The position numbers were made by a program, and so were the translations under genes. From Phoronis australis (taxonomy: Eukaryota > Animalia > Phoronida), in assembly GCA_002633005.1 (NCBI GenBank), contig NMRA01000114.1, forward strand, positions 120,724-184,723: DNA of 64,000 bases. The letters are read 5' to 3'. The notes beneath the pieces were generated by a model. That model did not search any database, was not told where the DNA came from, and saw only the letters and a program-made list of their open reading frames with translations. Below are positions 6,470-64,000 of this stretch, in pieces (the first letter of the stretch is position 1; every line of letters starts with the position of its first letter).

Positions 6470-7479
6470 CAGTGGCGGATCTAGGATATCACAAGGGGGG
6501 GGGCCCAACATTTTGTCCGGTTAGAAGCATTTGCGCAAACTGAACCACGAATGTAGATGCGCATAGCACCGAATGGGGGGAGGTCGGGAGGGGGCAAACC
6601 CCCCTCCCGCCGAGGAAATTTTTCTGTTTTTACCTCTAAAAATCGAGCATTTTCCTTGATTCCTGAAGTATTATCCAAGAAAAAAGGCAAAAAAAAAACC
6701 AGAGAACGTGTCAAACAGGAAAAGTGCAAGGAACCAGAGACTCGAACTCACAACCTGGCGAATAGAGCGCGCGTGGTTTACCACTACACCACCACGATTT
6801 AACTACTACTTCTATACCTACTTGTTTACGGTCCACAGCGTTTGCGCGCGAAACCTACTTCTTTTTGTAATGCTTATTACACGTTTTATATTTTGTGCCA
6901 TCAATTCTTAACAAATTTGTCGTATTTGAAATAGTCTTCAAATGCCCAAAAGACCAAATCCATTTTTCGTGTTGGCAATAATGACGGGATTGCTTTGGAA
7001 ACCGTCTTAAGATAAGGTTTGACAAAGAGAGTATTGCGAGTTTCTGAGTGATTCACTAAGGCTTCGATTAAAATTCACATCTTACCAGCAGCTTCTGTTT
7101 TTTCATCGTCACTCAGGTTCCATTTTCTTTAAAAAATGAAGTAAATTTTCTTCATTGCACAGTGGAGCAGACGACGGAAACGGAGTCGTAGTGCGCAGCG
7201 CCGCTGCCGGTCGCCTAGGATATCGCGGGAGATTCTATACTTAGCCATAGTTCCGTTACGAACGCGCCGTGTTCCGAATTTGACACTTGAAATTGGATTT
7301 GAGCCCCCCCCCAACACTAAAACTGCACACATTTAAATCTTTTTTCATCCGTATAATTTTAATTACCGGGGTTAATTAATAAACTCACCATTTCCCTACG
7401 CTCTTACTGTTTTATTTTTTTTGCCGCAGCCAAGGGGGGGGGCCCGGGCCCCCTGGGCCCCCCCCTAAATCCGCCTATG
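6470..7479. mobile_element. GC-rich non-autonomous DNA element with 5-bp TSD, carrying a nested dispersed repeat
   Basis: Imperfect TIR CAGTGGCGGATCTAG / CTAAATCCGCCTATG; TTATC on both flanks; internal 6785-7225 recurs at 11605-11944 and 12423-12850. Confidence 0.7.
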
Positions 7480-9600: not shown

Positions 9601-9834
9601 ATATTATTTTCGCGGCATTTGACAACATATTAGTGGAGGCTATTTTTCCAACTTTTTAGTGTATTCTGAGTGTTGCTCCCATGGTCACAATTTTGGTTGC
9701 TCCCCTGACCATTCACAACATATGCTGAGGTGGTGTATAAGTGAGAATATTTAGTTGTACCCAACTATTCCCAACTTAACCCAACTTATCTTGCCATCAC
9801 CACTAATGCAAGCCTGTTGCTGACATCATGATAA

Positions 9835-11480
9835 AGGAGCATGCCACCCAAAAAAAATCAATTTTGTATCAATTTAGGTCGAGTAGTTCTACTCGATAAA
9901 GGCACGTTCGGTTGCGTTACCTGACACCTGAAGGCAGACGAAGGTGTTGAAATTATCCAATGACGTCATTGGTTTCACACGCAGTCTGTTCAGCAGTTCA
10001 AAACACGGGTTACTGGTGTCAGCTTTTCGCTTCAATCCATTGTTTTTAAACGATAAGTCATGAAACTACGATGTAAAACCCTTAAAAATACACCGAGTTC
10101 TTATAAAAACGTGTTATTTTATTTTGCTGTTACGCATTTATTGGTATTTGGACACACCGTAGCCTACAACGTTCGGCAGGCCAATTTACCAAGGTCCGTA
10201 GCAGGAGTTTGGGTTCTGTTCGGAGATAAATTCGAAGTATTTTTCCCTGAAATACAGACAGGAGAACCTAGATCTGTGTTGTTTAGACTTGTGATTTTTT
10301 GAGTTCTAGACACACAAAACGCTTGTAATCCCGGCCAGTGGCTCGGAACCCGATCAGGCCCGTCGCGGCCGAACTGACTCGTTATCTCGGCCAGTGGCTT
10401 GGAACCCGATCAGGCCTGTCGCGGCCGGACTGAAGACATCACGAACATAAACCAGTCAAAGTTGGAAACTAAACTTCCAATCAAGAAAATACCATACTAG
10501 TGAGCCAAAGAAGTAATGTGCACGTGATTATTTTGGTGAATTAGCCATCTACATGTACTTACTCGTCGGGAGCCGCGAATTCAGAATTCCCTGGCCACAG
10601 AACCGTCAGGGCAGAAGCTGTACTTTGACAATCATTATTTGAATAATGTATACGTAAATAAAGATTCCCCTAACATCTGGCCGTGGGATAGAAAATCGAG
10701 CTATATAGTTTCTGTCAGCAAACACTGAATGAGCATGCGCTCACACAGCCTCGGTGGCCGGTCAATTAGTTTTACTGCATCCAAAGCCGGTAACGCACTG
10801 ATTTATTCATTGCTGGCTTCTCAAATCATTTGCACTCACGAACATTCCAAAGGCATTACAAATTGCATCTAATGAGAGAGACTTTGTTTCAGTTTTATAT
10901 AAGTATTGGTTAGGCTGAGAATAATTCTTTTGAAATACAATGCTCAGTAATAAATGTCCACATGGCAACTCGCAACCCCGACTTAGACGAGAGCTCAACC
11001 GACGAAGTTTTTGCAGGCTATCAGTTCGAACGGAATGCAGTGATGAAGAAATACTAGAGAGGCGCCGTGAACAAGCTCAGGCAACGGAACGTATGGATGG
11101 TTATTTGGTAAGCCGGCATTCGTCAGACTCACTGTCGACGACTGCAGGCCACAGACACGGAGATATTTCACAGCCTCATACTTGCTATTTACAGCGTACT
11201 TTTCATTCTTCACAACCGCGAGCCACTTCCTAAGCATTTCGGACTCTCGAGGAAGTCGAAAAAACGATATACCTGCTTTCCTCGCAGCGGGAGTGATGCA
11301 CTGCAACATAGCGGCATTCACTCTTTAAATGAACCACTGACGTCGCTGCGTCGTTTCTCACCTTCCTCAAAGGTCAACCCGATACCTCTCGGCAAGGTAA
11401 GGTCGACCGTATGCGAGGCTATGTGGATACAGACCGTTAAGACGGTAAAACATACTAATTAAATCGGCTGGCATTCTCCT
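9835..11480 (-). mobile_element. Kolobok-like non-autonomous element with THAP-domain remnant (copy 1)
   Basis: TIR AGGAG(C/A)ATGCCA / TGGCATTCTCCT, flanks ATAA / TTAA; ORF 10995-11321 has THAP-like SFFRLPRESEMLRKWL...LRVC; co-linear with 62152-63874. Confidence 0.8.
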
Positions 11481-11944
11481 TTAATGTTATCAAGCTGCTC
11501 CTGCAGGTGGCGCAGCGATTAGTGGGACTAGTACTGAATAAGTTAAAATGCGTGATTGGTGTCTCTAACATTGTGAGCCTTTGGATGACGTCATGTACGT
11601 TATCTACACCACCACGATTAAACTACTAATTCTTACTAAAAGACCTACTTGTTTATGGTCCACAGCGTTTGCGCGAGAAACCTACTCCTTTTTGTAATGC
11701 TTATTACACGTTTTATATTTTGCCGTGCCATCAATTCTTAACAAATTTGTCGTATTTAAAATAGTCTTCAAATGCCCAAAAGACCAAATCCGTTTTTCAT
11801 GTTGGCAATAATGACGGGATTGCTTTGGAAATCGTCTTAAGATAAGGTTTGACAAAGAGAGTATTGCGAGTTTCTTAGTGATTCACTAAGGCTTCGATTA
11901 AAATTCACATCTTACCAGCAGCTTCTGTTTTTTCATCGTCACTC

Positions 11945-12114
11945 NNNNNNNNNNNNNNNNNNNNNNNNNNNNNNNNNNNNNNNNNNNNNNNNNNNNNNNN
12001 NNNNNNNNNNNNNNNNNNNNNNNNNNNNNNNNNNNNNNNNNNNNNNNNNNNNNNNNNNNNNNNNNNNNNNNNNNNNNNNNNNNNNNNNNNNNNNNNNNNN
12101 NNNNNNNNNNNNNN
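11945..12114. other. Assembly gap (run of N)
   Basis: 170 consecutive n characters. Confidence 1.
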
Positions 12115-12762
12115 TGCACTGCAACATAGCGGCATTCACTCTTTAAATGAACCACTGACGTCGCTGCGTCGTTTCTCACCTTCCTCAAAGGTCAACCCGA
12201 CACCTCTCGGCAAGGTAAGGTCGACCGTATGCGAGGCTATGTGGATACAGACCGTTAAGACGGTAAAAACTACTAATTAAATCGGGTGGCATTCTCCTTT
12301 AATGTTATCAAGTTGCTCCTGCAGGTGGCGCAGCGATTAGTGGGAATAGTACTGAATAAGTTAAAATGCGTGATTGGTGTCTGTAACATTGTGAGCCTTT
12401 GGATGACGTCATGTACGTTATCTACACCACCACGATTAAACTACTAATTCTTACTAAAAGACCTGCTTGTTTATGGTCCACAGCGTTTGCGCCAGAAACC
12501 TACTCCTTTTTGTAATGCTTTTTACACGTTTTATATTTTGCCGTGCCATCAATTCTTAACAAATTTGTCGTATTTAAAATAGTCTTCAGATGCCCAAAAG
12601 ACCAAATCCGTTTTTCGTGTTGGCAATAATGACGGGATTGCTTTGGAAATCGTCTTAAGATAAGGTTTGACAAAGAGAGTATTGCGAGTTTCTTAGTGAT
12701 TCACTAAGGCTTCGATTAAAATTCACATCTTACCAGCAGCTTCTGTTTTTTCATCGTCACTC
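12115..12762 (+). repeat. Near-identical copy of 11297-11944 across the gap (probable false/allelic duplication)
   Basis: Both copies run from TGCACTGCAACATAGC to TCATCGTCACTC, differ only by scattered substitutions, and abut the gap exactly. Confidence 0.85.
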
Positions 12763-13245
12763 AGGTTCCATTTTCTTCATTTCACAGTGGAGCAGACGAC
12801 GAAAACGGAGTCGTAGTGCGCAGCGCCACTGCCGGTCGCCTGGGATATCCAAGTCCAGATTATCTCTTCTACCTTGGCTGATAAGCGTAGCTAGACTTCG
12901 CAACCATTCACTCTCGCTCCTCCCTGCCCGCAGTCACCATCAATTTGGTATCCCTGCCCCCAGGTCACCATCTAATTCCCCTTCATCCTATCGATCGCCA
13001 CCGATTTCAGCTCTCTTCTCTGTATTCTCAGTAGATGAGCCATTGAATGCTCCGCTGACTATTTTTTTCTTATTTTGCCCGAATGATTGTGATAGCGAAG
13101 GTCACGGGCTTTTGTTCAAGCAGGCTTTCATACTTTGTTGTCTGTCACAATCAAATTACACTAGCGTTACACATTTGTCTGCACTCTGTTGTTTAAAGAG
13201 ACGCTTTAGTATCATTCTGCATATTGTAGGCGTAAGTTCTTGACA

Positions 13246-14517
13246 ATGACTGGGAAAAAAGCAACACTTGGGCAGATGTTAGTGAGTGTCGCTGTTGGCC
13301 ACCAGTGTGCAATACTCTACAACTCAGTTACAACAGAGTCGCCTGTCCTGATCCAGAGACTACCTGAATACTGGGACTTGCCTGTGGTCTTAGCTGCGGG
13401 CTTCGCGATTGTGAGCGCACTGGTGTCGGGAATCCTTCTGGTACTGATGAAGGTAACAACTGGTATTGACCTTCTCTACAGACACAAGCCTACGGTGTTG
13501 TTAACTTTGGGGTGTCTCAAGGCCATTCTCATCGTTTTAATGATGACATACTGGGATGGCATATCAACTGTTTACGGTAAAAAGTACAGCATTGCGTTCC
13601 AAGTCATCTGGGTGTTGATGTTAGCGGTAGAAACGATGGACTTAACGTTTGGTTTACTTTTTGTCGGAACGTTTCCTCAAAAGTGTATATATGGGTTCTA
13701 CTTCGGAATGGGTTGTGCCGGCACCGTCTACGGGTTAATAGCGTTTTTGCAAGGTGCAGGCGAATTTTATTGCGTCAATAAAACACAAAATGTGACACTG
13801 TGGACCCTGCACGGGAACGCTACCACCAGGGTACACCATGTGAAATATTTGAATCTTAGCGACAGGCAAACAGTTGTTTTTAAACCGTTATTGTTTTCCG
13901 TGGAGACCAATTTTGGTATCGTAATGGGTATCTCTCTATGTTGCTGGGCTTCACTTCTTGCTTACGTGGTCTTTCTTCGTCTACGACCGGAAATTCCCGA
14001 GGCGGAAACCATACAACTCGTAACCCGGGACGATGCTAAGGCGAACACTGCCGAAAGAGTTTCTGAAGATCTAACAGAGCGCTGCACGTGTGCACGTAGC
14101 TCTAAAGAGCTAAAATGCCGCACGTGTGAAACAATTTCTCAAGAATCAGCAAAACAGCATGATCCGAAAATATCAAATCGAGAAGAGAACCCCACCAACT
14201 GGAAAAAGAACGTCATTTTAGTGACTGTGTTCGCGTGCATTCTAAAGGCATTGACATATGGTGCGTCCCAACCGCTGATGGCGTATGCAACGTTGCCGTA
14301 TGGTACCTTAACGTATAGTCTAGCTCGAAGAATTTCTTCTGGCGTGGAACCTCTTGGAAGTATTGTATGTGCGTTTCTCCCAATTCAGTCAATACTGGCG
14401 TTGACCTTGACATTGTCCGCGTGCGTGATACTGTGTCTATACGTGTGTGCAGTTGGTCTTATGAGTCCTTCTCCTCCTTTTGTTTCCACTTATCCGGAAA
14501 TCGGTAGTGGCTTAGTG
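13246..14517 (+). CDS. SLC52A: SLC52-family (riboflavin transporter-like) membrane protein, coding exon 1
   Basis: Multi-TM ORF with SLC52 landmarks ESPVLIQRLPEYWDLP (cf. ELP..V..LPEGW.LP), FYFGMG....GLIAFLQGAG...C, AYATLPYG..TY.LA and LMSPSPPFV; ATG at 13246; phase-0 donor GTG|GTAAGT at 14517/14518; a candidate upstream acceptor AG at 13228-13229. Confidence 0.9.
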
Positions 14518-16106
14518 GTAAGTACTTTCAGTACCTGTGGTCATTTCATTGTTTTTAAATACAGCTTAAGCTTTTAAATTCAACTATGTGATAATGGAAT
14601 AAAAGCGTAACAAAACGAAATGGAGCCCGTCTGAAGACACTGTGTATACAGAGACTTTGTAAGAATGAACTCGGTGACATACTGATACCTTTTTCTTTTG
14701 TTATTTGTTTTTTCAGTCTCTAGACTAGGAATGTTGTTTGTCCTTTGAACTTTGAATTCGAGTGTGAGAAACTGAGCTATGTGGTGTATGCCGCTTGCTC
14801 AGGCAGGTGTATTAGCTTTTCGCTCTGCTGGACAATGGACCCGTAGGCTTGTAAAATCATTTCTGAAACAATTTTTTACTTGGTGAAATGAATTGGAATG
14901 CCTGTTGTTAATCATGCACCCATCGACAAGTGTTGCTAAGTAACCTGAAATATTTTAGTCAAATTTTCTATATGGAGCAACTGTTGCACTTCCACCTACA
15001 GCACGGCCATGTTGAATTTGCAGGATATGGAGGTACAGACAATATAACACGCTTTGCTTCAAATGTTTTTACAGTAAACTTGGACAGAAAAGGTGAATTT
15101 GTTTGGTTTAGACCCTGTCGTGTTTGATTATGGTTATCACTGTCATAATTCACCGAGTCAATGCAGTGTTGAGAGAATCACCTCGTTGATTCCTGAACCA
15201 TGTCTTATGGCGTCAAAACATAAATAAAATAAAAATATCAGATAGGTGTTTCAGTAATAGAATATAGAAAGATGAAATTTGCTCCTGAACTCCTAAAGAT
15301 AGTAGTCTACATGAAAATTGTACCAGTTTACTTTTCAGGCCAAAATTTTCGAATGTTTTCCAAGTAAAGCATATTCATGATTACTTATCTTGAGGTTAGA
15401 AAAACTTAGAAAAATTCCAATTTTGGCCAACTTCGGAGCATCGTATCTCAGAAAAACTATGCTTTACACTGCACACTGTTCTCCAAAATCCCTTAGGCAT
15501 CGTTTTTTAAATGTTCCACTTTTGCTTGCAAGGCTATCAGACCAGGACTGGTTTACGATTTGATGAACAAAATTTAAGTCACACTACGATAAAGCGAAAA
15601 CGAAACAATGATTAAGATAACTGCAACAGCGTTTTTAAGAATATATCTTCAAACAGTTTCACGAGGATGATGAATACCAATTGACGTAGGGATTTTTTTT
15701 TCCACTAAAAAGTAGTAAATACCTGCAGGCGGTGACTGCTACTAAAAAATTCAGCAGAGGCACTAGAAAAGCTTCGACGCCAATTATCCTCGCTCGTGAC
15801 TCGATGAAGAGAGCACCTTGGCGGCATCCCTTTGATCGTGAGCCGAGCGCTACTCAGCCAAGGTGAATACGGTCTAGTTCAATTTTCCAAACCCCCGTTT
15901 ACCTTGACAAGCGGGGTTAGGACCAATCTTATTTAGTGGGAATGTTTATCGCATGAAGCGTGTTTAATGAATCTGCAATCACAGACTATGAGGTAGAGAA
16001 AAGCACATCATTGGCGGGTCGGGTGCAACTATCATGGATAGTGAGGCCAATGATCTAAAGAAATAAGAAAGTCGATCCACATCAGGAAAGAGGTCACCAA
16101 TGAACG

Positions 16107-20411: not shown

Positions 20412-23400
20412 TAGTCGGTGGGCCAGATTTTGTAGGGCCTCTAGAAAATGGTTTTTGTGAGTACTTTAGGGGGGCAATTTTATTTTGGTGTTATTTAATT
20501 CATTTATTAGAGTGTTTTCAAAATCTAAAAAGTTCCCACATATAAAGTTGCACATTTTTAAGAAATTTGAGTTTGAAGTTACATAATAATCACCAAAGAG
20601 CTTAGTAAACTTATATTTGTAAAAACAACAGTTTTGGTGACTTTTTTGTAAAACAAGTAATATGGTCCCATCAGTGCCATTGTATTGAACAATATTACAC
20701 TCACATTACACGTTTTACTATTGTAAATTAATTGTAAACAGTGAAATTTAAAAAACGTAAAGAGACACCTAGTGGCAAAAATACAAACTAAGTCTGAATG
20801 TTTCTAGGAAGTTATTCTGGCATTGTCAGGCAACAAAAATAACACAAAACACTTGGGACTGGGCAAAATTTGTGCCTCAATGACTAAAACATTGACTAAT
20901 GGTGTAAAATACAGCTTGTTTGCATAATACACCAGAAATACGTTATAGTACAAAAACAATATACAGGTAGTTGAATGATCTCTGTGAATGTGCACAAAGA
21001 CTGTATGAAAATAATAGATTATTCTGACAGCGTTTATCAAGCAGTATGAGACAAATACATGACAATGATCAAAGTATGTACTTTCTATGACTTAATCAAC
21101 AAATAAAATTAACTTTTTAATACAAAAAAGGAAATAACGGGGTTGGAGGTCTATTTAGGGTTGGCTTGTCAAAGAACTATCCAATGTTATGCAGTCAGTG
21201 TTGCTGATGTTACTACAGTTGTCACAGCTGCACATTTCTGTACAGTTTGACCCAGCATTGCAGCACAAACTCAGTTTCCCAGCACACATGTTCTTTTTGC
21301 ACTTGCAGCGTTCATCGTTTAGTACTGTCAATGGAGATGCGGTCATTGCCATACATATTAACTGCAAAGCTCCACTGCCAAGGAGCCAACTATGGTCGAT
21401 TAGAGAGGGTACAGCACTGCACACTGGTGATTAGCCCGCAGGCAATGAAGGGTCAAACACTAAGTCCTTGTTTGGAGGCGGGCACTATTTGGGCAAACGT
21501 TTGATTCAAAATATGTTATAATGGGCTGTGTTAATTAGAGTCAGCAAGTGAATTATTGAACACTAGCCTCAATTCACTTTCGTATCTCTTAGTCGGGCAC
21601 AAACTACAACAGTGAGTAGCTTCAACAATATTTCTTAAGATTGCCTGTCCAAATAACTTCATGCACACCAGCTTTCTGAAGAACAGCTTCAAAGTCTTGC
21701 TTTAGTTTTGAAAGGCAAATGACATCTCCTTGTGTTAGAAGCTTCGATTCAATGAACTCCAAACAAAACTGTAGAAAAACATCTCTGAAAACTGTGAATT
21801 CGTCACTCTTCACAATCGTTGTCTTTCTATTTTTTATAGCATGATGATCTGTGGTACTTGGCTTCTAAGACACAAGGTCTTTATCTTTGAATTTCATTTG
21901 CATATTCAGGGCTCTGGACTGAGCTGTTGCTTGCGATACAAGTCCAACGAAAAAAACCCAAACTGTTAACACTAACTTAACATTCAACTATGAGTGAGTT
22001 GGCATGCAACTTTTTCAGACGGACTTATCAGGCACTGATCCACCACCAGCCTAACAAATTTACATGCCGTCTGATCTGTAGCCTAATAATGTTGATCGTC
22101 TAATAATTAGATCAGTTGATGCAACTGAAAATAAATCAGCTGATATACCAGTGCAGTGATTGAAATTTAATTTTTTTAAATCAGATGCTCAAACCATAGT
22201 CAATCAATTTACACTTAAGGTAATCGACGTTTGACAAAATGAACAGTGGCTTCCATCGTCCTCAAATTTTGACGGCGACGATGGCCACTTAGGCACTTTA
22301 ATTTAATTATCATTGCACCTACCTAAGTAATTAATGTTTACAAAAAATTGAGACTACGGCAGGGGATGACGGCCACTTGGGCATGTTGTTTGCAACCATC
22401 TACTCCATTTAACCTTCTCAAAAATGTTTGACTTGAAGTGCTTTAAAATCACACCCACAGTATATAACGCCATAGGATTATTCCTTAGCGCAAGCAGTGT
22501 AGATGTGGCAACTGAATGAAGTGTTCGAAAAACAGGATTGCAGGAGTATTTGTTTAAACTGGGAACAAATGAAAACATTAGCGACCTCCTCAGAGGCATC
22601 TCTCTACGCGGTACTTCTAAACTTATAGGAACATAATTTGCCGAAAAGTATCCGGCATATGGAGTACCTATGGTATGATCATCGACTCTACTTGGTCAGC
22701 AGTATTGTCTAAGGCCTAGGCAGCCAAGGGGCTGAACAAGTTAAAAAACAACTGGTGATAATACTGAAACACACATGGAAAACACCAATATGTATTTTTC
22801 AAAAACACGTACCTGTTTTTGAAAGCTATACTTCTTTCTCTTTCTTGAAATGTGGCCCATAATGTACTTTTCCTGCTAACAAATGATGCACTCATGTTTC
22901 AGAATGTTCCTATCTTGTTCAGGTTAATTGGGTGTTTCAGATTTTGGAAATATAATTGATTTTCTTGAGAAATCTTGGATAACATCTGTATCACTTTCAG
23001 CAACTTCAGCTTTAGTACTACTGTTGGTGCCTTGAAACGTTGCTATGCCGTTCTATGTCCTTTCAATTTTCTGGTCTAACACTTGGTCTTCTAGTCTACA
23101 GCACTCAGCAGTATACTGTGTAGGCTACACCAGGACATGCAGCTGTTTTCTGCACAAACGTTTGTGACACCTCTTCTTCTTTTTGATCTACTGATCTACA
23201 GAGTTCCACAGTCAATCAGCTTTCGTCAGGAAGCTTTCCTAAGCTTCTTTAGGCTCTGACATCACAATTTTGTGCTGTTTGATAAACCTTGAATTATACA
23301 GGCATCACACTCCATGGGAGCAGCCATATTGAAGTAACTAAGCACAACAATACAATCTGGCTCTCTGATTGGTCAATTCAATAGAAAAGCGCCATCAAGT

Positions 23401-38020: not shown

Positions 38021-38941
38021 GGTTGATTGATTAAAGTAATCTTTAAAGAGGGCGCTAGTGTAGTTACTCTTCTTTGTAGTTGATTAATTAATAAAAAGCA
38101 GGTTTCATTTGTCTAATTAGTGGTCATCATGTAATAAACTAATTACTGGGTTTAATTATTCACTCTCCATCTACGCACAATCACAAAGCATAGCTACCTT
38201 TTAAACAAACCCACAGTCAATCTCCGACAACCACATGGTTTAAAAGTACATACATGTATGCATAAATTTTGGGCAACTTAAAACGGAACTGCGTGTACTA
38301 ATTACTTAATCAATATTTATTCTGTCAGTGAATGTTATTAACCAGATGTCCTCAAAGCCATGTAAGTTTTTGTCATAATCGGATAAAAAATACATTTCTT
38401 CACAAGAGATGCATTCACGAAACTAACTCAAGTTCTTGTTAGAGGAACTGATGCAGAGTCCATGCTAAGTTGTCACTGCGTCAGCCTCGTTTTGAAGTTG
38501 ATATTCATAGGAGAGAGAAATGCAACAATAAAGACAAATAAGAGTCGATTTCACAGATCTTTATTTTGCTTTAGTCAGCAGTACACTTGTGTAAATGTCA
38601 GCAATGTCACTGGTCTTTCACTAGTCTGAAAAGGAAGTTTAAAACAGTCATTATGCAATTACAGTGGTGATATAGTCGAACACCGAATAAAAGACACTTA
38701 AGTACAGACTGACACAGAAGTATAGTAAAGAATTTTCAAAATACAACTGAGAGCTATACATGTAGTTTTAGTTCGAAGAATAGATTTCTGGCCACAGTGT
38801 CGACATGTCTCAGTGTCAAAAAAATCAATCACAACTTTTGCATCTGACTCAAAAAATCAATCACATCTTTTGGATCTGACTACAAAGTAATTTTCTTTCC
38901 GTTGAGAAGCCTCCTATGCCCATTTGCATGAAACAGTATGT

Positions 38942-39903
38942 CAGGGTTGACTGATTGATCGAGGAATTTTTTTGAAAACAAATACCAGGAAACTGATATA
39001 CTTCTGTTTTTGAATAAGAAGTTTTTTAGCCATAACCTACTTTTCATTCAAAACGGTGGCTGTCGTTTGCTTTCAACCCCTGTCGCCTGCTGTCCGAGAA
39101 ACCGGCTGCGATTCCAGGTGGCGGTCAGACAGATCAAAATTGCCAAAAATGTATCTTTTAAGGGGCATACTATGACCACAATTTTAGAATCTAAAGAGTT
39201 CGAGCACTCTCAATCTGTAGTCGGATTGTTCCTAGCACTTGCAGGGAAGTTGCAATTCTGGGGAGAAAACTATCAAATTTGGTGTTTTTGGTAATATTTT
39301 AGTGTGCCGGGATTTTTTGCCGATGCGAATTAACTGGTTAAAAATCTGTGGCGTAAATAAGTTTGAGTTGTCACGAGTAGTGCTTGTGAGTTACAAAACC
39401 CTTTGTTTTTTCAGATACTCGATTAGCACGTGAGGAAAGGGCCCATCTGTACTTTGATGTGTGTCGGCAGCCAAAAGTCTGTTGTACATGTAACTGTAGT
39501 TTGCCCCCTTGAGAACTGACTTATTTCCAAGGACTCGCAGCTTTCGTCTATGAACACCGGTAGGCAGTGACGAAATTTTCGCGCTAACCAGTCAGTCATC
39601 AATCTATAGTAGGAGGAGTAAAGCGGCTCTAACACGTCGAAAAAAACAATTTCGCAGAATATTCCAGAAGTGGTGATTTATATTTTTTCCATTTTAAACT
39701 AGTTATTCACCAGGACGAATCCATGGTAATCTTCGTCGTCAGAAATATCCCCGTGTTGATAATAATAGCATTAACGTTTAAAATGATGAACAGATATTTC
39801 TTAAAAAACGACAATAACTCTAAGTTAAAGTATTTTCAATTTATGGATCAGGGGAACTAACATCGTCTCAGACTTGGACTCTGAACTTAGTCAATCAACC
39901 CTG
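38942..39903. mobile_element. Possible hAT-like non-autonomous element
   Basis: Inverted termini CAGGGTTGA / TCAACCCTG; no TSD recognisable. Confidence 0.35.
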
Positions 39904-40672
39904 GCTGTTCAATAAGCCGCCACTAGATTCTGCACCACAAGATATGTCGTATGACTCCAAGGCTAGAGTTCAGTAACTCTCTCGGTGCTAAAGAAATCTA
40001 GCTAAAATCACGTGTTCTCATTTAAAGTACATTGCAATAGCCCGCATAATCTCGCTACGTCGTGGTTTTCCATCGAGGCCTAACGTTACATAACTCTACC
40101 CAGTATTGGAAAAGTAGAACCTTTAGTCGTATGTCCAAGATTTGGAAGGATCTTGGTTAGGCTAAAAAAGCGTGACAGGCTCTAGTCTGTGTTTTTGAGA
40201 TTTGATGCGGTTATACGGTATGCATGTAGTTTTACACGTTTAGAAGTCACATAATACGATGTACTGAGCCACAACACCACGTTCCCTACAATGTATTTTA
40301 TCACTCCGGCTGGTCTGCTCAGACGATGTGGTAAACTGACTGACAGGGGGTGATTGTGGTCGTGGGTGTGTGGTGCTGACTGCAACCCAAACCAAAAATT
40401 GTTCAAAAATTAGAGTCAAGTGAAGGAGCAGCCTCGTTATTTTATGCGCAACTGATTGCCGCGGCGTATAAGTAATCTGTGTTCTGCGATCGTGTACTTC
40501 GCAGAGACCTACTGCAAAGCTTAAATGTCCACATCGACGTGGCGAGGACTACCGACATTTGCCACCAGTGAATGACTGTTTGGGAGCCCTCTTCAGTCAA
40601 CATTCCTCTCCCCGCGATAACCACAAAGTATTTCAACCGAGTCACGTGAATTATGAGACAAAGGCTAGCACA

Positions 40673-43600
40673 CCCTTACAAAAATGAACTTAAGTTTTTC
40701 GCTGAAAACTTAAGTTTTTGGCAAAAAAAATTAAGTTTTTGGAAAATAACTTAAGTTTTAGAGGAAAAACTTAAGTTCTTCCGAAAAACTTAAGTTTTTA
40801 AAAGAAACTTAAGTTTTTAAAAGAAACTTAAGTTTTTAAAACTTAAGTTCTTCGCCAAAAACTTAGGTTTTTCAACACAATGTTAAGTTTTTCAGAAAAC
40901 TTAAGTTTTTCAGAAAACTTAATTTTTTTCAAGTGTAAAGTAAGTGTTTTTACAAATAAACTTAAGTTTCAAGTAATAACTTAAGTTTTCATGAAAACTT
41001 AAGTTTTTCAGAAAACTTAATTTTTTTCAAGTGTAAAGTAAGTGTTTTTACAAATAAACTTAAGTTTCAAGTAATAACTTAAGTTTTCATGAAAACTTAA
41101 GTTTTTTGTACTAACAAAACTTAAGTTTTTCTGATAACTTAAGTTTATCACAAAACTTAATTTTTTTGTAATTTTAAAAACTTAAGTTTTCCTGACTTCT
41201 TAAGTTTTTCAGAAAACTGGATTTTTTCATTTTGTGGAAAACTTGAATTTTATTAAAACTCTAAGGTTTCCATGCGATGAAAATTTACGATTTCAAATTT
41301 TTAAAATTTGAATATTGTGAGATATTTAATTTTTGGTTCGAAATTTTTCCCATTATTTTCCAACAAAAAATTATTGTTTGCTCATGCAAAACCCATCGTC
41401 TCATAAAAATGTTGCCCGAATGTTTCTTTAACATTGATATAAATACAAACCATAAAACGACGAAGTCAACCTGGTCAGTACAGAATTAGTGCAGTTATGT
41501 AATCATTACAGCACGTCTTTGTGAACTAAATGTAGACGAACATCCGGTGACCAAAAGCAGTAAGAATGCACCCAATGTTTATCCCGAGACACTGACTTGG
41601 TCAGTACAATTTAATCAATGGAACTCATGCAATTCTTAAAAAAACGTAGTTATTGTGCAAGTTTCCTTTGTGTTGAGTTGTATTCGTAAGGCAGTTTCCA
41701 CCGGAAGTCAACAGTTTGAATTTTATAACCGACAGTCAACTTCGAAGAAAAAGTCGTGTGTTGGCTAGCCCGCGACAATGAAGTTTATATTACTACGAGC
41801 AGAGCCAGCAAGAAGACATTTCAGAAGTTTTGGAAGTCAGGTTAGTGCCAGAGAGCGTTCTAAAATCGATTGGCCACAATCGGCGCTGTGATTTCCAACG
41901 AACGTGTTAAGTTCAGTTGTTATTGTCACAATGTCAGCGACTCACGAGTCATGCTGTCACACGGCATGGACTCATTCTGTGTGTGAATTATCTAAACTTC
42001 TAACGCGTAATATACATGTACTTCTGGAGGTCCATCAGAGGAAGCCATAACGTTCACATCAGGCTATCACTCTATTATGTTTCTGTCTTCTGAGGTTGTG
42101 TCAGTGTGATCAATGCAAGGGGGGGAACTACCAAGGCAAAATGTAATCATTTCCCAAGTTGGGTACATTTGGAATTGTGTGTGCTTATGTCTATGCTCGT
42201 AGTAATTCTTGGAAGCTCCTGATTTTGAAATCTCATATCACTACAGGTCAATGATTTGCAAGGTTCACTTGCCTCATCCACGCACCAATCCTAAAATATG
42301 GGGGGTGCTCAAATTTTTGGGAATGTTGACCTTTTACTAAAAAAACGTAGTATGTTCAGAGCTGTGCGCAGTGCATTCCTGAACTACAGCTTTTTAGTGG
42401 ACTCGTGTCTCGTTTTCTCAATTTTTTTTGTTTCTATGAGGCTGACCTTTTCATGCCCACTTCGGCAAGAGGGGGCTGCTCGTTCGAGCCTCCCCTGGGT
42501 GCGCGCATGTGCCTGGCTCTCAAAATTAAGAATAACCAATGTAACTATTGTATTGCCTATTTTGACTGATTTGCTCAGGTTTGTCGGGTGGATCTAGGTT
42601 ATTGAATGCGAAAGGACATCCCGATCCCACTACTAGTACCCTATCTGGAATACCCCCCGGCATAGGTCACAATGTACTCAAGTGAACTCTCACCAGTTAA
42701 CATGTTAACTATTGTTAAGCACAGTGAAACTTGCATAATTCCTATCTAATTGCACCAAATAATTAATCCAAATAAGGAAAATCTGTGTGACTTGACTTTG
42801 GGATTGAGTATGTGCTTTCGAATTTTTACCGGGTTGTGGAATACTAGAATGTCGCAAAAGTTTGCATATTCAGACTTAAAATTTTCATATTCAATGCGAG
42901 TTCGACTGGTTTTATTGAAATCAAATATTTCAGTGTCATGGTGAAAGTGATAGTTAATCTGGGTACAACTTTACCTAGGAGTTGAGTTGAGTTCAATATG
43001 GACTGACTAGAATGATCTCCTCATGTTTGTAGGGGCATATTCTTTTCCCTCTAGAAATTTGCTTGGAACCTCAATTTAATATCTTTGCAAATGTCAGCCA
43101 GTAAAGTGATTGGTAGGAGTACTGGATATAGTATTTTTATGTTTATTATTAGTACATGAGATAATAATTTTATTTTTACTGTAAACTATTATGGTTACGT
43201 AAGACTTCTCGTGAAGACCATGCCAGTAACTTCAATGGTGGATTCAGAGGACAGCTAAGGGGCCATGGCCCCGGCCCCCTAAAACGCTACAAGATCAACT
43301 GGCAGTTGGGGTGGACGGGGTGAATGTCTGATGGGCAAAACCCTACTCTGCCCTAACCCCCCAACTCAAAATCCTGGACCCTCCCCCCACCGCCCCTGAT
43401 CTTTACATGGATAACATTCCCTGTAAATGGGTTATGTCTGTATTCTTAAGAAGCTATCACATACTGTTATGTTTGCTTATTTCTCATTGTTTTCAGGTCT
43501 CTATTAACTTGGCGGAGTACTTGGAAGAACTAAACATCCAAACATTTGCATCGAAACAATCACCCAGGGGTGGTATTGGGCTGTCTACATCGACGTGGCA

Positions 43601-43719
43601 ACTTTAAGTTCGTTCCAAAAAACGTGTTCCAAAATACTTAAGTTTTCGCCAAAAGCTTAAGTTTTCGGGAATGAAAACTTAAGTTTTTCGATGAAAACTT
43701 AAGCTCATTTTTGTAAGGG
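40673..43719. mobile_element. CMC/EnSpm-like non-autonomous element with palindromic subterminal repeat arrays
   Basis: TIR CCCTTACAAAAATGA(A/G)CTTAAG at both ends, 2-bp flank duplication CA; many AAAACTTAAGTTTT units at 40685-41270 and a few at 43600-43705. Confidence 0.75.
42275..42509. mobile_element. GC-rich MITE with 5-bp TSD
   Basis: Imperfect TIR CATCCACGCACC / GGTGCGCGCATG; TGCCT on both flanks. Confidence 0.65.
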
Positions 43720-44595
43720 CAAGACTGAGCGAAGAGCGTGACCGGGCGCGTGACACTTGCAAAAATAGTATGGGACGACATCAAGTGAAATTTGCAAGAT
43801 TTGTTTCCCTTGGACTTTTTATGAGGATGTACTGTGGCCCCTGTGTGTCTTTGCGGTATTCAGGGCGATATAAATACCTAGTTCGGGTACACTTCCGATT
43901 TCAGTCCGTTCACAGCTTCGCACAACAGCAAAATCACCTTTTCTTTGTGCATTCACAGTTATTCCACGATCCATCAGCTAACTCTTAAGTTGTGGTAACG
44001 TTTTAAGTGTAAAATTCTTTATAAAAGCTCGCTAAGATTTCGCCCGTGTAGCAAAGACTCGGGAACAAAACTAGGGCAACATGGCGGGTTTTGCCCTGAT
44101 TCTGGTGACGTCATATCTAATATCTGGAAACTCGCAAGTGAGCTATTGTTTTCCGCCATCATCTTGCAGACGTCGCCTTGCTGTTCAATAAGCTGCTACT
44201 AGATTATGCACTAAAAATAGCGTAAATAGCGTGGTATGTTGGAATTGATGCAGTGATACTAAGTGCGTGTCGTTTTATAATTTTAGAGGTCGCATAGCAC
44301 GCGTTAAAGTGGGGTGCAATTTTCTCCAACCCCAACGATCCAGTGACGAGGAGGTGTACTGTGATTGACCGGGGGTAATTGTGCTCCTTGGGTAGGGGAG
44401 CTAGCCGAAAAAGACGATTCTTGCTAAGTTGCCATACATTGTTGTTTCATGCGTTTTTGTGGCTTTTGTACCAAAAATTGCCAAATTTACTGGCGTTGGG
44501 TACTGATTTTCTTTAAAGATTGAAGCGTCATTTTTGCAAAAAGTTTAGTCACAAACCGTAACCACTCATTCTATGTTCCTTTGTTTTGTATATTT

Positions 44596-44720
44596 TTACG
44601 TACAGCGACATGTACACCATAATCCCAGGCTGCAGTATCCGCCCTTTTTAGCGCCTTTTCCTTTGCAATCGTAGTAACAGATCCGTTCATAACAATGTGT
44701 GTACTCTCTTTCCTGTATAT
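44596..44720 (-). CDS. CS-alpha-beta defensin-like peptide, terminal coding exon (end of propeptide plus mature peptide)
   Basis: Acceptor CCTCTATTTCAG|, phase 1; reads (D)IQER-EYTHCYERICYYDCKGKGAKKGGYCSLGLWCTCRCT* with CxxxC, GGYC and CxC motifs; too short for the supplied ORF track. Confidence 0.85.
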
Positions 44721-44822
44721 CTGAAATAGAGGACATTATTCACTTGCAACACAGTCGTACTTCATTCTTACATTTCTAACGGTGAGTACGCATTTTCACC
44801 GATCATTATCAATTACATGTAG

Positions 44823-45000
44823 CAGGGGTGGATGCAGGATTTTGAGTTTGGGGGGCAGGCCAGATTATTATAGAGGATTTTTCCGCGGGAAAAACGCACC
44901 TTTCCAAACTGCCTTTTGGAATCTGGGGAATTTTTAGGGGGTGCATTGCCTTCCTGCCCCCCCCCCCCCCCCCNCCCCCCCCCCCTTCATTCCGCCACTG
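44823..45000. mobile_element. GC-rich MITE in the defensin intron
   Basis: Termini CAGGGGTGGAT / ATTCCGCCACTG; same family as 17001-17162, reverse orientation. Confidence 0.65.
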
Positions 45001-46140
45001 ATTACAGCATCCGTGCAGCTCGTGAAGCATACAAGTTGACTAGCACAGTGTTGAAGCTTTCACTGAATAAACGTGTCCATGTTACTCGGGAAGGTCACGG
45101 AATCTGCGATGGATTTTTTCGTTTTAGATTCTTGGTGTACGTAGACAACAGGTTTTATGGCTTAAGAAAAACCATCATTAATTCAATCTTAATTTGAAGA
45201 AGGTTTTGAACCTGGCAATTTTAACCAGGTGAACATCCGGTCAACATAGCTTACCATAGGTAATTAGACAATTTGTTATCAACTCGTAATTTCATGAATA
45301 TTTATTTACCTTTATAACGTAGGTGCATATCATTAATCGAGATTTAATAACCAACAGATATCATCACGTATGTTATATAACATATTTTCACATATACCCA
45401 AACGACTTTCTGAGGTGCAGATTCGCCTAATCTGTCAGTGATAGTGAAGCGACGATAATTTGTTTCAATTCTTTTTTAAAGTTTCTTCGAATTAATGAAA
45501 TAACCACAATCAATAACTTGTTTTAATTATTGACTGTTTATTCATTTTAAATTTTCAAACAGTGGCACTGTGTAACATTAGGCATTCTTTTTCCGTGTTG
45601 TCATGGTAACCTTGGATGTAAGATCAATCATTGTGTAAACAATATCTAGTACTTTTTTATGTTTTTATCATAATTTTTCATCACTTTTCAATTTCTATTA
45701 AAGTGTAGATTAAATGAGCGTCACGTGATATACCTTTTGAGTTTTTATTTCATTTTTCGTTATTCAGTATTTCAGTATAAAAAACTCTGAACACGTTTTG
45801 AGAAGTTGATGGCTTCGATATTTTAGTTTGTAGGGGTAAAAGATTTCCATCTCGGTCAGAAATATTCTGAAACCGATTTGATTTGAGAGAAAGTCCCAAT
45901 TCAGTTTTTGTTTTGGCCATCTATACCGTAGGACGGAATGCAGTTTTAAATTTGAACTGTTACCATTGTTTCACGTCATAAACTTGAAGAGACTCTTGTT
46001 CTTAAGACGCAAGGAACTAGCGAAAACGCGAAACTTCCCGAGATATCCCGAGGCATTACAAATAATGCCTGTGATCACTTTAACTTTACTTGCGAAATTC
46101 TTGCAGAACCCGCCCCAGAGCACTGAGTTATTGTTCTCAC

Positions 46141-46222
46141 CGACGTCTTTGCCATCTATCGGCAGCGCCTGAAGGCAGCCCACAGCCAGCATCAATATAA
46201 TGAATACCGCGATACACTTCAT
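46141..46222 (-). CDS. Defensin-like precursor, first coding exon (signal peptide and start of propeptide)
   Basis: MKCIAVFIILMLAVGCLQA-LPIDGKDV then G|GTGAGA phase-1 donor; acceptor TTACAG| 13 nt upstream of the ATG (exon starts at 46235); joins in frame to 44720. Confidence 0.82.
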
Positions 46223-46715
46223 GACTTCTGGTTTTCTGTAATTCAGTCAGTTTCAGATCAAGTTCCGAGAAACAAGTATGTAAAAGAAGAAACAAGTATG
46301 TGACATTAAAACAAAATGCAAATAAACGTTTGCAAATCTTTTGAAAATTACTCTTCCGTTTTATCACGTAGAAATTGAAACATATGCGGATACACAGTTT
46401 TCTGCATACCCTGTACCTAAGATTCAGTTGAAAAGTCAAGTATCTGCACGAGTCTCTGTGAACGGCCTACTTCCATCTTGTGAATTGCAGATTTGAAAAA
46501 CGCCTTGTAACTTAACAACAAGCAGTTAGTAGAAAATACATAATTTATGCTAGTGTAAAATAACCTTTTAGAAAGTTGGTATTTCGGAACCTTTTAAAGG
46601 AGGTGAAGAAATTTAGACAGTTTGCCTCGTCTGGTGGCAGCAACTAGAAAATCAAAATTCCCATTATTTAACATTTGATTCCCAATATGCAGCGTATCTG
46701 GGACCAAATACTCAC

Positions 46716-46817
46716 CTTTTCAAAGCCTACCCTTTTCAAACACAATCCTGGGAAAGTGAGCCTTCTCTAAAAGTGTGCTGCAACAATTGAATCTTAGCCT
46801 TAAGCCTACTTTTTATT
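46716..46817 (-). promoter_or_regulatory. Candidate 5'-UTR exon and core promoter of the defensin-like gene
   Basis: Strong donor AAG|GTGAGTAT at 46716/46715; Inr-like TCAATT near 46788 with an AT-rich AATAAAAA box about 29 nt upstream. The transcription start is speculative. Confidence 0.4.
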
Positions 46818-47630
46818 TCTCAAAATCGACGAAACTGACTGCAGTTTCCGAGACAGAGTGCCATCTATTCGCTCAAAGACGATACTGCTTTTCCCAGCAC
46901 TTCTTCGGATTTTGCAGCACTACACGGAGCTTACGGTTTGACGAAGCTGAATTAATTTACGCTCACACACTCCCTATTAATGCTTACATTCCCGCAGGTC
47001 TTGGTATGACAATCGCAGTAGGGTGCATGTGAGAAACTGCTGTCTAGGGATGTAATCGGTGTCTAAGGAGGTACAAGTAGAATCAAATCATCTGTGGCGG
47101 AAGCAAAACTGCGGTCGACGGAGGGAGGTTGCACTCACATCTACTTCGCCCTCATCCACTTGACACATGTAAAAGCAAATTTCCTTACGCCTGTACGTGA
47201 CTTATTCTGGCTACCATACTTACCCTGTTGTCTTCGCTCCTTACTGCAAGGTTATGGATTACTAATAATGTATCCCGTTGTATATTCTGCCAACTGTAAT
47301 GAAGTAGAATACAGTAATAGAATTACTAATGTGATGGCGTTAATAATGGTGTAATTTTGGTTGCATATATTGTCATTACCGGCTACACTTGACGATGTTG
47401 AGATAATTCCGGCTCATAAAGGTCCAAAAATTCAGCAGAACACATTCTGAATTTTAAATTTAGATATCAATATTTAAAACTGAAATTTAAACCAGTTTAT
47501 TACAGTAGTTACGCATCTTTCACATATATAACCAGATACCAACACACAAGACGAACATTTGGTTAGCTTCATCACCGAGTCCATACTTTAAACAATTAAG
47601 ACGGTAAGTTGATGAAAGCAAAAACGGCAT

Positions 47631-49409
47631 AGACCCTATTCACGCCGACAGGAGGCGCGTTCCAAAACGAGGCTCGTTACGATAGCTCTGATAGCTTATC
47701 CGCGTAGTTGTACTCCGCGTTGCTCGAACAGCTAGAAAAAATACGAACACTCTGTTTTACAATCCCTAACGACGCAGGGATTCGGAAGCGTTGAGTCCTT
47801 GCCATACACCGTGACGAAGGAAAATGTGTCCGTGTAAATTTCATAACTGTTTTCGAATCATAATTTGTCGCATTTCGGAATGGATGCCGCCATATATATA
47901 CGAGGACCGGAGAATCTTCGGCCAGCCAGGCTGTGTTTTCATGACTATGGGTTGAAGCGCGATGCATTTTTCTTTACAAAAAAGGACAGGGCCCTCAATC
48001 CCTCAATTTTGGGGCCAAATATCGGCCCTATTCTCCTCTCAAAAATATTGAAAAATCACGCGAAATTCCCGGCCACGCGGGCCTAAAAATCCCCTATGTG
48101 AAAATTTCTCTCCAACGGTTCAAATCACCTGTGACCACAGAGGTGACAATCTGAAAAAGTACAAAATCATAGGCGGATTTAGGGGGTTGGACAGGGACCC
48201 ATCCCTCCCTCTTGACTGCCGCAAGGAAAGTAAACCAGCAAAGCATGAAGCGAAAGGAAACTTGTACTCAGTGAGTTCGAGCTAGGACCGGCAGTGGACG
48301 AGGGGGGAAAACAGGTTCCGTTTTATTTTTTTTTTTAGTCCAACGACAGATTTCCTGGGCATAAGGTATACATCCTCGGCGCCCGCAACTTCCGAGCCGC
48401 CTGCGTGCATACAATCGCGCTTTGCCCGCTTCTCCGAGGATGTTGGGCTCCCCCTCACAGTGGTATCCTAGATCAGCCATTGAAAATGCTACTTGAGACA
48501 GAGCTATGGGAACTTGCAAAAGGGCGGGGTGCTATTGATGGTGATCGGGAGGTCAGTAGAGTTTCACTGACCCGTCACTCGGCAAAACGTTCCTCTCTCA
48601 GAAGGCTGCACACTTATGAGGCACCTTTCCCCTCGGATGTGAACGAGGCCTCTGAAGAAACATGATAACTATACTTGTTCCAGAAGGGATCCAGGACTTT
48701 GAGTTGGGGGGCACGGCAGAGTATTAGCCAGGATTTTGCCCGTCATAAATTCGCGCTCCTGAACTGCCAAATGGAATCTGGGAGAATTTTAGGGGGGGGG
48801 CTGGGGCATAGCAAATCAAAATATATATTTAATAACATCAAGTATTATTTCAGATCAATGACAAAACAACTGACAGTCCCGGTAGTGCCTACCTCACCAG
48901 GACCTAGACTATGCTTGAAGCTAATAGGCCTACTCTTCATCAACAAATTAAAGCAGATGAGACTAATTGCACATGACAGTAAAATGCTATGAGCCACCAC
49001 TGTCGAATATATCTTCAACTCCTCAACAATACGACCAGATGACCTGGTTCGTGTAGAAAGCGTTTTTATCAAGAATTTATTGGAAGAAACGTAACCCTGC
49101 ATTCAGCATGATACCTAATCCGTAACACTACGATCGCCGGAATTTGGTCATGTTTACTTTTCATGTTTCGAGCCTAGTTTTCCGGAAAAAACTATATCCT
49201 TTCGTCAGACAACTCTTTGGTGCATTGACTTGTTCTTGAACTGTATTATCTACGTCTCTGTGGTTAATTATTGACACATTTTTTTAACATTTGATATTCA
49301 TGTTGGACTCCAAAGACCGGTCATTTAACTCACACAATGTAAATTTCCGCTTTGTTTATCGCAGTGAGCCTCGCTTTGGATTTTAATGTCCGCCGCGTGA
49401 ATAGAGTCT
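47631..49409 (+). mobile_element. ISL2EU/PIF-like internally deleted transposon with THAP remnant
   Basis: AT|AGACCCTATTCACGC ... GCGTGAATAGAGTCT|AT; plus-strand fragments SCTPRCSNS and IPNDAGIRKR*VLAIHRDEG (THAP-like) at about 47703-47860; nested GC-rich MITEs. Confidence 0.7.
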
Positions 49410-60853: not shown

Positions 60854-62151
60854 TAGTACAATTAGACGATTTTTGTCTATCTAAAACAAGTCTCAAGGAC
60901 TTTGGTGAAATTCGGACAGTTCCCAAAATATACTCACAATTCAAATGACAATGAAGTCATTGCTTTTTGACTTGGGTACGAGATTTGTCGTTATAACTCA
61001 CAAACAGAAAGTCAAAGAGCAATGCAGTCCTTAAATCAATGTAAACGCACTGTTCATGGAATCCATTTTTGGTTTAAGATTTACATGTTTATATATCTAC
61101 GAGAATCAAATGATTGAGAGATGATTTTTGACAATTAGAAGCTAATCTTGTAAGAAATTACGATGCTTCTATGAACTTAGTTGCAGGCTGACATTGGGAA
61201 AATTCGATATATCATCAGATCCCAAATATCAAAGTATACAAAGAATTTAACCCATAATTCAAATGGAAATAGATTGTTAAATGACTTAGGAACTAGATTA
61301 GTAGTTTAAAATCACAAAACGTAGGTCGAAAAGGAAGTTTTTAAAAGACCTTAAATAAGTAAATTAAAATCCACTGTTCATTAACTTTATGTTGTTAGCT
61401 TCCAGTAGTATTGCTTGCATTTCCCTTGCATACTACACAGACGGAGCAGGTGATGACTGGCGCGCCCAAGGTTAAAATACGGTTCAACAATGTAGTGGGC
61501 CCGAGCAGAATCTTCTTGATCCCAGGAACTCAATTTGAACTCTAGGCTTTGAAGTGTGTATATTTTTGGGACACACTCTGTATCATATTCCCCAGCCACC
61601 AGAAACTGGACTACGGGCCATGTATCAAGAAGGGATTTGGAAACAGCCCCAAAGGGACCTCACTTTTATTAAAAAAAAACATTCAAAGAATGACCACAAA
61701 AATATAAACTTTCCTCGAAACTGGATCGTAATAAAACAAATCTTGACCTCAGAGGAAGCTCCCAACTACTCGTCAGTGCGCTGGCCCCCAGTCCATTCTT
61801 TAACTCTTTGTGAAACCTTGTTGGTTCTCGGTTTCTCAAATCCTGATGGCTGCATTCTCGGGACTGCACCCCCGCCTATGGCGGCATTCAGAGAATGGAG
61901 GAAGGGCGTTTGGAGGGCTGAGGTGGTGGTGATAGGAAAGGGGTAGTCAAAGTTTGAAAACAGTCCTGCATGTCATTAATGTTCAACAAATTTTTGATAC
62001 CGTCTATCCAACCATTTCTACAAGGAGCAGAGTACTCCTATGGAATTTACTGTCATTAAAAATCTTCGCAACTACTCCGTTTTTCAACTGGAATTGCATC
62101 AGAGCCAAACTATTACAAAACCCTTACCAGAAACAAAATTTAATAATTTAA

Positions 62152-63874
62152 AGGAGAATGCCAACCAAAAAAACAACCTATTTTGTATCAATTTAGATCT
62201 AGTAGTTCTACTCCATAACGGCACGTTCGGTTGCGTTACCTAACACCTGACGGCAGACGGAGGTGTTGAAATTGTCCAATGACGTAGTTGGTTTCACACG
62301 CAGCCTGTTCAGCAGTTCAAAACACGGGTCAATGGTGTCAGTTTATCGCGTGAATTCTTTGTTTAACACCAATAAATCATCAAACGTCGATGTAAAACCT
62401 TTAAAAATACACCGAGTTCTTATAAAAACGAGTTGTTTTATTTTCCTGTTACGGATTTACTGGTATTTGGACACACTGTAGCCTACAAATTTCGGCAGAC
62501 CAATTTACCAAGGTCCGCAGCAGGAGTTTGGGGTATGTTCGGAGATAAATTCAAATTATTCTTCCGTGAAATACAGACAGGAGAATCTAGATCTGTGTTG
62601 TTTATACTTGTGATTTTTTAAGCTCTAAACACACAAAACCCTTGCTCTCCCGGCCAGTAGCTCGGAACCCGAACAGGCCCGGCGTCGCTGCCGGACTGAC
62701 TCGTTGGTCGGCCAGTGGCTCGGAACCCGATCAGTCCCGTCGCGGCCGCCGGGACTGGCACGAACATAAACCAGCTTGAGTTGGAAACTAAACCTTCAGT
62801 CACGAAAAGACTAAAATAATGAGCCAAAGAAATAATGTACACGTAATTATTGATGTGAAATAGCCACGAAACTGAACATCTACTGACTTGTCGGGGGCCG
62901 CGAAGTCGGGTTCCCCTTCCACAGACCGTCATGGCAAAGGTTGTACAGTAACAATGATTTTGAATAATGTATTTGTATTTCAAAATAAAGATTCCCCTAA
63001 CATGTGACCATAGCATATAAAATCGAGTACTTGTTTCACAACAGCTTTCTGTCAGCGAACACTGAATTAGCATGCGCTCACACGGCCTCGTTGCCCGGTC
63101 AATTACGTTTATTGCCGGCATCAAAAGCCGATAACCCATTGGTTTATTCATTGCTGCTCAACATTTGCACTCACGAATACTGCAAAGGCATTACAAATTG
63201 TATCTAATGAGACAGACTTTATTTCAGTTTTATGTAAGCATTGGTTAAGATGAGAAAAATTCATTTTGAAACATAACGCAGAATAATAAATGTCTACATG
63301 GCAACTCACCCGGCGCCAATCCCGACTTCGTTAGTCAAGAGCTCATCCGACGAAGACTTAACGGGTCGGATCGTTAGGTTTCACAGGCTATCAATTCCAA
63401 CCGGAATACACTGTTCGAAAAATACTAGAATGGCGCCGTGAACATCCATAGGAAACGGAACGTATGGATAGTTCTTTGGTAAGCCGGAATTTGTCAGATA
63501 AATCACTGTCGGCGAAATGCCGGTCACAGACACGGAGATGTTTCACGGTCCCATACTTGCTATTAACAGCGTACGTTTCATTCTTCACCACCGCGAGCCG
63601 TTTCCTAAGCATTTCGGGCTCTCGAGGAAATCGAAGAAATGATATACCCGCTTTCTTCGCAGCTTCGTAGTTCGGACAAGCGGGAACGATGCACCGCTAT
63701 ATAGCGGCATTCACTCTGCAGACGAACCATTGACGTCGCTACGTCGTTTCTCACCTTCCTCACAGGTTAACGCGACACCTCTTGGCAAAGTGAGGTCGAC
63801 CGTATAAGAGGCAATGTGGATATAGGCCGATTAAGACGGTAAAAAAGACTAATTAAATCTGGTGGCATTCTCCT
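62152..63874 (-). mobile_element. Kolobok-like non-autonomous element with THAP-domain remnant (copy 2)
   Basis: TTAA|AGGAGAATGCCA ... TGGCATTCTCCT|TTAA; minus strand at about 63391-63700 reads CIVPACPNY...SFLRFPREPEMLRKRL...LRVCDRHF (THAP C2CH pattern). Confidence 0.85.
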
Positions 63875-64000
63875 TTAATTCATAAGAATTATCATTAAAA
63901 ATACGTTTTGTTGTCAAAACCAAGAGTGCTATCAAAATGCTATAAATAACAGCGTACGCAACCTAAAAAGGATATGAAATAGAGAGGTTATATGAATAAC

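Follow-up and report, generated by a model that had tools for sequence, protein, structure and literature searches.

The window, by which we mean the whole 64,000-nucleotide stretch of Phoronis australis DNA analysed here, carries on its minus strand a transcribed four-exon gene that encodes the precursor of a small six-cysteine peptide (Table 1). Its structure and its transcription can be regarded as practically certain. The surrounding DNA is 36–45% G+C with many repeats, and apart from this gene a single clear host gene was detected in the window, a large open frame resembling SLC52 riboflavin transporters (13210–14577, plus strand, Pfam E 1e-39), which lies about 24 kb from the terminal exon and probably continues in further exons. 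When 148 of the 155 stop-to-stop frames of at least 72 aa were compared with Pfam, in addition to three others compared separately, nothing further rose above cut-off and no other immune gene was seen nearby. A THAP-domain repeat element is present in two copies that are 81% alike (9832–11485 and 62149–63879), with partial copies at 6784–7224 and 11297–12849. A 648-bp, 98% duplicate flanks an N gap at 11945–12114 and may be an assembly artefact. The segment 40677–41257, an array of partly palindromic units of 18–20 bp, matches itself in direct and inverted orientation; a short outlier lies at 43631–43719. A cysteine-rich frame on the minus strand (21158–21430), perhaps a transposon relic, gives a sub-threshold match to Tesmin/TSO1 CXC (E 0.001).

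Table 1. Exons and introns of the defensin-like gene, in the order of transcription, with the evidence for each.
Feature	Position in window	Strand	Evidence or remark
Exon 1, 5'-UTR only	47224..47296	minus	upstream edge approximate, at least 47296; joint 46235/47224
Intron 1, 988 bp, GT-AG	46236..47223	minus	RNA joint and splice-site letters
Exon 2: ATG at 46222 after 13 nt of UTR; predicted signal peptide (~19 aa), start of propeptide	46141..46235	minus	translation, hydropathy
Intron 2, 1420 bp, GT-AG, phase 1	44721..46140	minus	43 (X1) + 81 (X2) junction reads
Exon 3, 117 nt, phase 1 at both ends	44604..44720	minus	translation, read depth, loose ends
Intron 3, 5978 bp, GT-AG, phase 1	38626..44603	minus	reads leaving the genome at 44604; donor and acceptor context
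Exon 4: 2 nt completing a Tyr codon, TAG at 38623-38621, short 3'-UTR	38545..38625	minus	30/30 loose-end match

The RNA data consisted of three raw-read runs, of which about one fifth each was read, and one contig set; the runs were picked by species label and the four sets are called X1–X4. Reads were mapped to 43800–47800 and then again to 44250–44800. The 46141/44720 junction, which had been proposed from the genomic letters as the splice of a hidden gene with a canonical phase-1 intron, was present in two of the four runs: the reads counted in Table 1 come from 28 starts in X1 and 43 starts in X2, and none was seen in X3 or X4. Exon 3 has no reads in X3 and X4, which may reflect tissue, absence from the individual or filtering. 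Almost all exon reads have the orientation that a stranded library would give for a transcript of the minus strand, and intron 2 shows a GT donor and a CAG acceptor before 44720. Further upstream, the joint 46235/47224 was found in 100 (X1), 59 (X2) and 2 (X3) reads with a shorter side of up to 73 letters, and read depth in the exon 1 bin 47150–47283 is 63.5 in X1 and 45 in X2. Both edges of exon 2 are set by RNA joints; its coding part runs for 82 nt from the ATG to 46141 and ends in phase 1. Four X1 reads join 44720 to 47224 and skip the signal exon; the resulting transcript would be without a start codon. None of the 40 variants listed (8 more exist) falls within 44604–44719. The hidden spliced gene is thus borne out by RNA. 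The two-exon model, for its part, had missed the 5'-UTR exon behind the 46235/47224 joint and the terminal exon that begins at 38625. The misleading 83-aa read-through frame does exist, and the gene is, as had been anticipated, easily missed by automated annotation.

The 3' end of the coding sequence had to be revised. Read depth, 65–115 in the bins covering 44611–44724, falls below 10 under 44592. At 44604, where a GT donor stands, 64 (X1) and 52 (X2) reads depart from the genome with a single consensus (agreement 1.0). All 30 letters of this consensus agree with 38596–38625 (the runner-up site in the window has 11 mismatches), and a pyrimidine tract with CAG immediately precedes the matched 38625 end. 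Since the reads depart at 44604 and their loose ends match in full behind such an acceptor, 44603–38626 is a third intron. The 44604/38625 junction rests on this loose-end match, the read mapping having covered the region of exons 1–3 rather than exon 4. From 44718 the frame runs without a stop until 44596, formerly taken as the C-terminus, and contains seven cysteines when read that far; with 44603–38626 intronic, the seventh cysteine, the threonine after it and the TAA are intronic too, and exon 3 leaves at 44604. The predicted mature peptide ends in Arg-Tyr and has 35 residues, not the 36 first proposed. Exon 4 carries AATAAA at 38565–38560, 60 bases past the acceptor, from which its 3' edge was inferred. 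The total coding length is 204 nt, corresponding to a precursor of 67 aa.

Retention of intron 3 might yield a second real product, read through from 44604 to the stop at 44596 and bearing the seventh cysteine. Its frame is open and a few reads do enter the intron (depth 8–9.5 at 44573–44591), but this is about one tenth of the exon depth and close to the pre-mRNA level in intron 2 (up to about 5), and part of it bears other letters. Moreover, neither AATAAA nor ATTAAA occurs in 44600–43800, and an odd number of cysteines would leave one unpaired, so that we hold such a product to be most improbable. The correction has practical weight: synthesis from the first-proposed sequence would have given a wrong C-terminus and an unpaired cysteine. 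More generally, last exons with few coding bases escape genome-only mining of small peptides. The outcome, for a candidate antimicrobial peptide without a detected homologue, is a sequence model corrected on, and supported by, RNA reads.

The precursor has a Lys at position 2 and a hydrophobic N-terminus (Kyte-Doolittle means of 2.5–3.5 in nine 9-residue windows over residues 1–17). Hydropathy and inspection by eye served to place the signal and propeptide sites, with signal cleavage near residue 19, followed by a predicted propeptide of 13 aa with a net charge of −2 and an Arg at its end. Exon 3 contains the end of this propeptide (Arg codon 44709–44707), 34 of the 35 predicted mature residues and all six cysteines. 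The predicted mature peptide has a net charge of +3, in line with the value of about +3 given earlier, a Lys-rich loop, and a Tyr- and Ile-rich stretch between the second and third cysteines. Cysteine spacing is 4-3-10-5-1. The pattern C-x4-C-x3-C-x10-C-x5-C-x-C of the original prediction therefore stands and is cleaner in the corrected peptide, the reading from which it was drawn having seven cysteines. CxxxC, GxC and CxC occur in canonical order and spacing, with the gamma-core Gly-Tyr-Cys at the fourth cysteine. The n-loop (first to second cysteine) measures 4 residues, which falls inside the range of 4–16 given for six-Cys defensins (PMC5116183), at its lower limit. A scan of the window in all six frames finds this six-Cys CS-alpha-beta-type pattern a single time, and none of 100 Markov-resampled windows contains it.

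The corrected peptide was searched against Pfam at E up to 10. Only two families were returned, both of the CS-alpha-beta type and both below their cut-offs, namely Defensin_2 (PF01097; 13.0 bits, E 0.097, cut-off 20.4 bits) and Toxin_3 (12.8 bits, E 0.14, cut-off 21.5 bits). The sole match in the PDB sequence search was 6px8, 'Venom polypeptide' (37 aa, E 0.21, not significant), presumably an assassin-fly defensin-like venom peptide, with an alignment of 28 residues spanning CxxxC, GGxC and CxC. In Atlas, the ten best matches having a family fall in one clan (best 0.85, 174 of 256 features), where a score below 0.9 is a lead only and one third of shuffled proteins likewise give ten of ten matches in one clan. 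The nearest Atlas clusters are scorpion short toxins (the top three; best clusters 0.84–0.85) and gamma-thionins.

Homologues were sought with the uncorrected 40-mer, which includes two intronic residues: none of 1.84 billion representatives gave an E of 0.001 or lower, and none was found among proteins of 71–2000 aa, a range outside which precursors of 67 aa fall. The signal-exon DNA motif had no match in metagenome contigs, and a 9-residue motif of the peptide had none in the papers searched, so that the family may already be described elsewhere. Two single-sequence AlphaFold2 models, built without an alignment (pLDDT 70; pTM 0.43 and 0.36), each have three strands and are devoid of a helix. 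A low-pTM model of the uncorrected 40-mer gave no Foldseek match at E up to 0.001, and in VIA-align the best Z among 48,161 chains was 3.0, again with a low-pTM model; CS-alpha-beta chains were not listed there, which is no evidence either way.

Taken as a whole, the cysteine pattern, the Gly-x-Cys core and the weak Pfam and Atlas matches agree and point to a CS-alpha-beta defensin-like peptide. Judged from the motif, the CS-alpha-beta fold is highly probable. The order of signal peptide, acidic propeptide and CS-alpha-beta-type peptide, as first proposed, is supported by the RNA splice and by the motif, whereas the fold itself leans on the motif and on sub-threshold similarity. By its motif, we file the peptide in the widespread CS-alpha-beta defensin-like superfamily, outside Pfam Defensin_2, alpha-KTx and the eight-Cys bivalve families, because for each of these a tested feature fails.

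The signal exon is shared with many other transcripts. At position 46172 the letter of the window was found in 78 of 1564 reads in X1, 104 of 2296 in X2 and 1 of 2546 in X3; about 95% or more of the signal-exon reads come from other copies, which run into different mature exons. These reads enter at least four different exons (loose ends at 46141, 46143, 46144 and 46145), none of which was located in the window by motif and similarity scans. Read by eye, the four 30-letter loose ends, too short to display full cysteine frames, are all in frame, diverge past the predicted cleavage site and have an Arg or Lys near it (Glu-Arg, Glu-Lys, Gln-Arg and Thr-Arg). The eight listed coding substitutions examined in the signal exon comprise three silent changes, three changes of Ile to Val and two at charged propeptide residues. 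The window holds just one signal-exon copy and one CS-alpha-beta motif, and for this reason alternative mature exons of CS-alpha-beta framework at the locus are unlikely; mature exons with other cysteine frameworks are conceivable there.

The gene is probably a minor member of a multigene family, and the data suggest that a larger, well-expressed family sits elsewhere in the genome, outside the window. Some forms could be alleles; X1 alone has three forms, which means at least two loci if X1 is one diploid animal. In three X1 reads both flanks of the mature region match and the interior does not, and eight X2 reads leave at 44707 into a different cysteine-containing sequence (mixed consensus, agreement 0.69). 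These reads, over 44603–44707, suggest a paralogue in which the mature region has been replaced while the exon flanks are conserved, and the gene likely belongs to a fast-diverging family. With the signal exon as a handle, all members of the family could be retrieved from these RNA runs, and a family that proved hypervariable would offer a natural collection of small peptides stabilised by disulfides in which to study the diversification of defensins. A bolder reading would see the first known member of an undescribed, highly expressed and hypervariable family, where the mature exon, symmetrical with phase 1-1, varies freely and the one signal exon before it is conserved; its short-n-loop peptides would be ion-channel toxins or would have a non-CS-alpha-beta fold, in a lineage without a known arsenal of this kind; we consider it quite unlikely.

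We propose, with a probability of about 0.6, that the precursor is secreted and cut to a six-Cys CS-alpha-beta peptide that would act as an innate-defence antimicrobial. The antimicrobial role is argued by analogy and is, on the same scale, somewhat favoured. The hydrophobic N-terminus would take the precursor into the secretory pathway, where the acidic propeptide (13 aa, net −2) would keep the cationic peptide masked; cleavage after the Arg by a convertase would release it. Disulfides C1-C4, C2-C5 and C3-C6 would tie a short helix to a beta-hairpin, and the Lys-rich loop with a Tyr/Trp/Leu hairpin could attach to the envelope of bacteria, with lipid II, the ligand of oyster defensins, as a possible target. 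While the signal exon stays conserved, the mature exon would diversify across the family, a pattern known from oyster defensins and mussel myticins. Acidic propeptides with a basic last residue are found in fungal defensin-like peptides (PMC4165938), and defensins of the kind considered here are present even in amphioxus (PMC4165938 and PMC12373286), so that it would be no surprise to meet them in many host phyla. The net charge of only +3 counts against the antimicrobial reading. In the promoter region, taken as 1.5 kb upstream, kappa-B-like sites number 0 under the strict definition (0.14 expected) and 1 under the loose one (0.7 expected), and GATA sites number 3 (3.5 expected), in neither case an excess.

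Cysteine spacing is unable to separate toxins from antimicrobials (PMC5116183), and the same gene and fold could be imagined in a family of venom or defensive toxins directed at prey or predator ion channels, a role that CS-alpha-beta peptides took on in scorpions. The n-loop of 4 residues is very short, as in short scorpion toxins (same source). Scorpion short toxins make up the three best Atlas clusters, and a venom polypeptide is the sole PDB sequence match. A signal exon that stays constant, a mature exon that diverges and a high read depth across the family, all seen here, are likewise typical of venom gene families. The K-C-x-N motif described in PMC5004176 is absent, however, the letters at the fourth cysteine being Tyr-Cys-Ser-Leu, which weakens the 'toxin-like' part of the original prediction; according to the same source, Kv channel block is possible for peptides without the full motif. 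[quoted passage not shown] We regard a toxin function as unlikely.

A secreted peptide with a fold other than CS-alpha-beta was considered as well: a three-stranded, disulfide-rich protease inhibitor, a signal or gamete-recognition peptide, or one with another role. Such a peptide would suit the three beta-strands, and the lack of a helix, in both AlphaFold2 runs, the Tyr/Ile-rich stretch between the second and third cysteines, and the failure of any family to reach its Pfam cut-off. The models were made without an alignment, however, have low pTM and match no solved fold, and CxxxC, GxC and CxC stand in their canonical order and spacing. This possibility appears improbable, and the candidate CS-alpha-beta defence peptide is the reading that we prefer.

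The preferred CS-alpha-beta defence peptide can be compared with several known systems. Like the six-Cys invertebrate defensins (ancient invertebrate type with a short n-loop; PF01097), the phoronid peptide has the cysteine motifs in order, an n-loop in range, a cationic character, and a predicted signal peptide with an acidic propeptide ending in a basic residue. It differs from Defensin_2 (PF01097) in its score (13 versus 20.4 bits), in an n-loop at the lower limit and in that no sequence homologue was found for it. It is also without the N-terminal Gly-Phe-Gly that we take to be the start of many six-Cys invertebrate defensins. [quoted passage not shown] An exon-shuffling idea is reportedly due to Froy and Gurevitz.

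In the oyster Cg-Def genes (Crassostrea gigas) the last intron likewise severs the final mature residues, the last two of which lie on a separate exon, and there, too, a multi-copy family with tens of gene copies combines a conserved signal peptide with a variable mature region; lipid II binding is also described (PMC2823732 and PMC3390580). Cg-Defs have eight cysteines, a mature peptide of 43 aa and no propeptide, whereas the phoronid gene has six cysteines, 35 aa and a 13-aa propeptide. As no sequence link to the Cg-Defs emerged, the common position of the last intron may be convergent. Mytilins resemble the phoronid gene in having four exons (PMC7168163), and myticin C in a mature region more variable than the signal peptide (PMC3164099). 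Mytilins and myticins, however, have eight cysteines and a C-terminal extension (anionic in mytilins), whereas the phoronid gene has six cysteines and its acidic part is N-terminal. The mytilin-type anionic extension is absent, exon 4 giving one residue and then a stop, and six cysteines are found in place of the eight that PMC5116183 gives for bivalve defensins, myticins and mytilins. The architecture of the gene has precedents among these systems.
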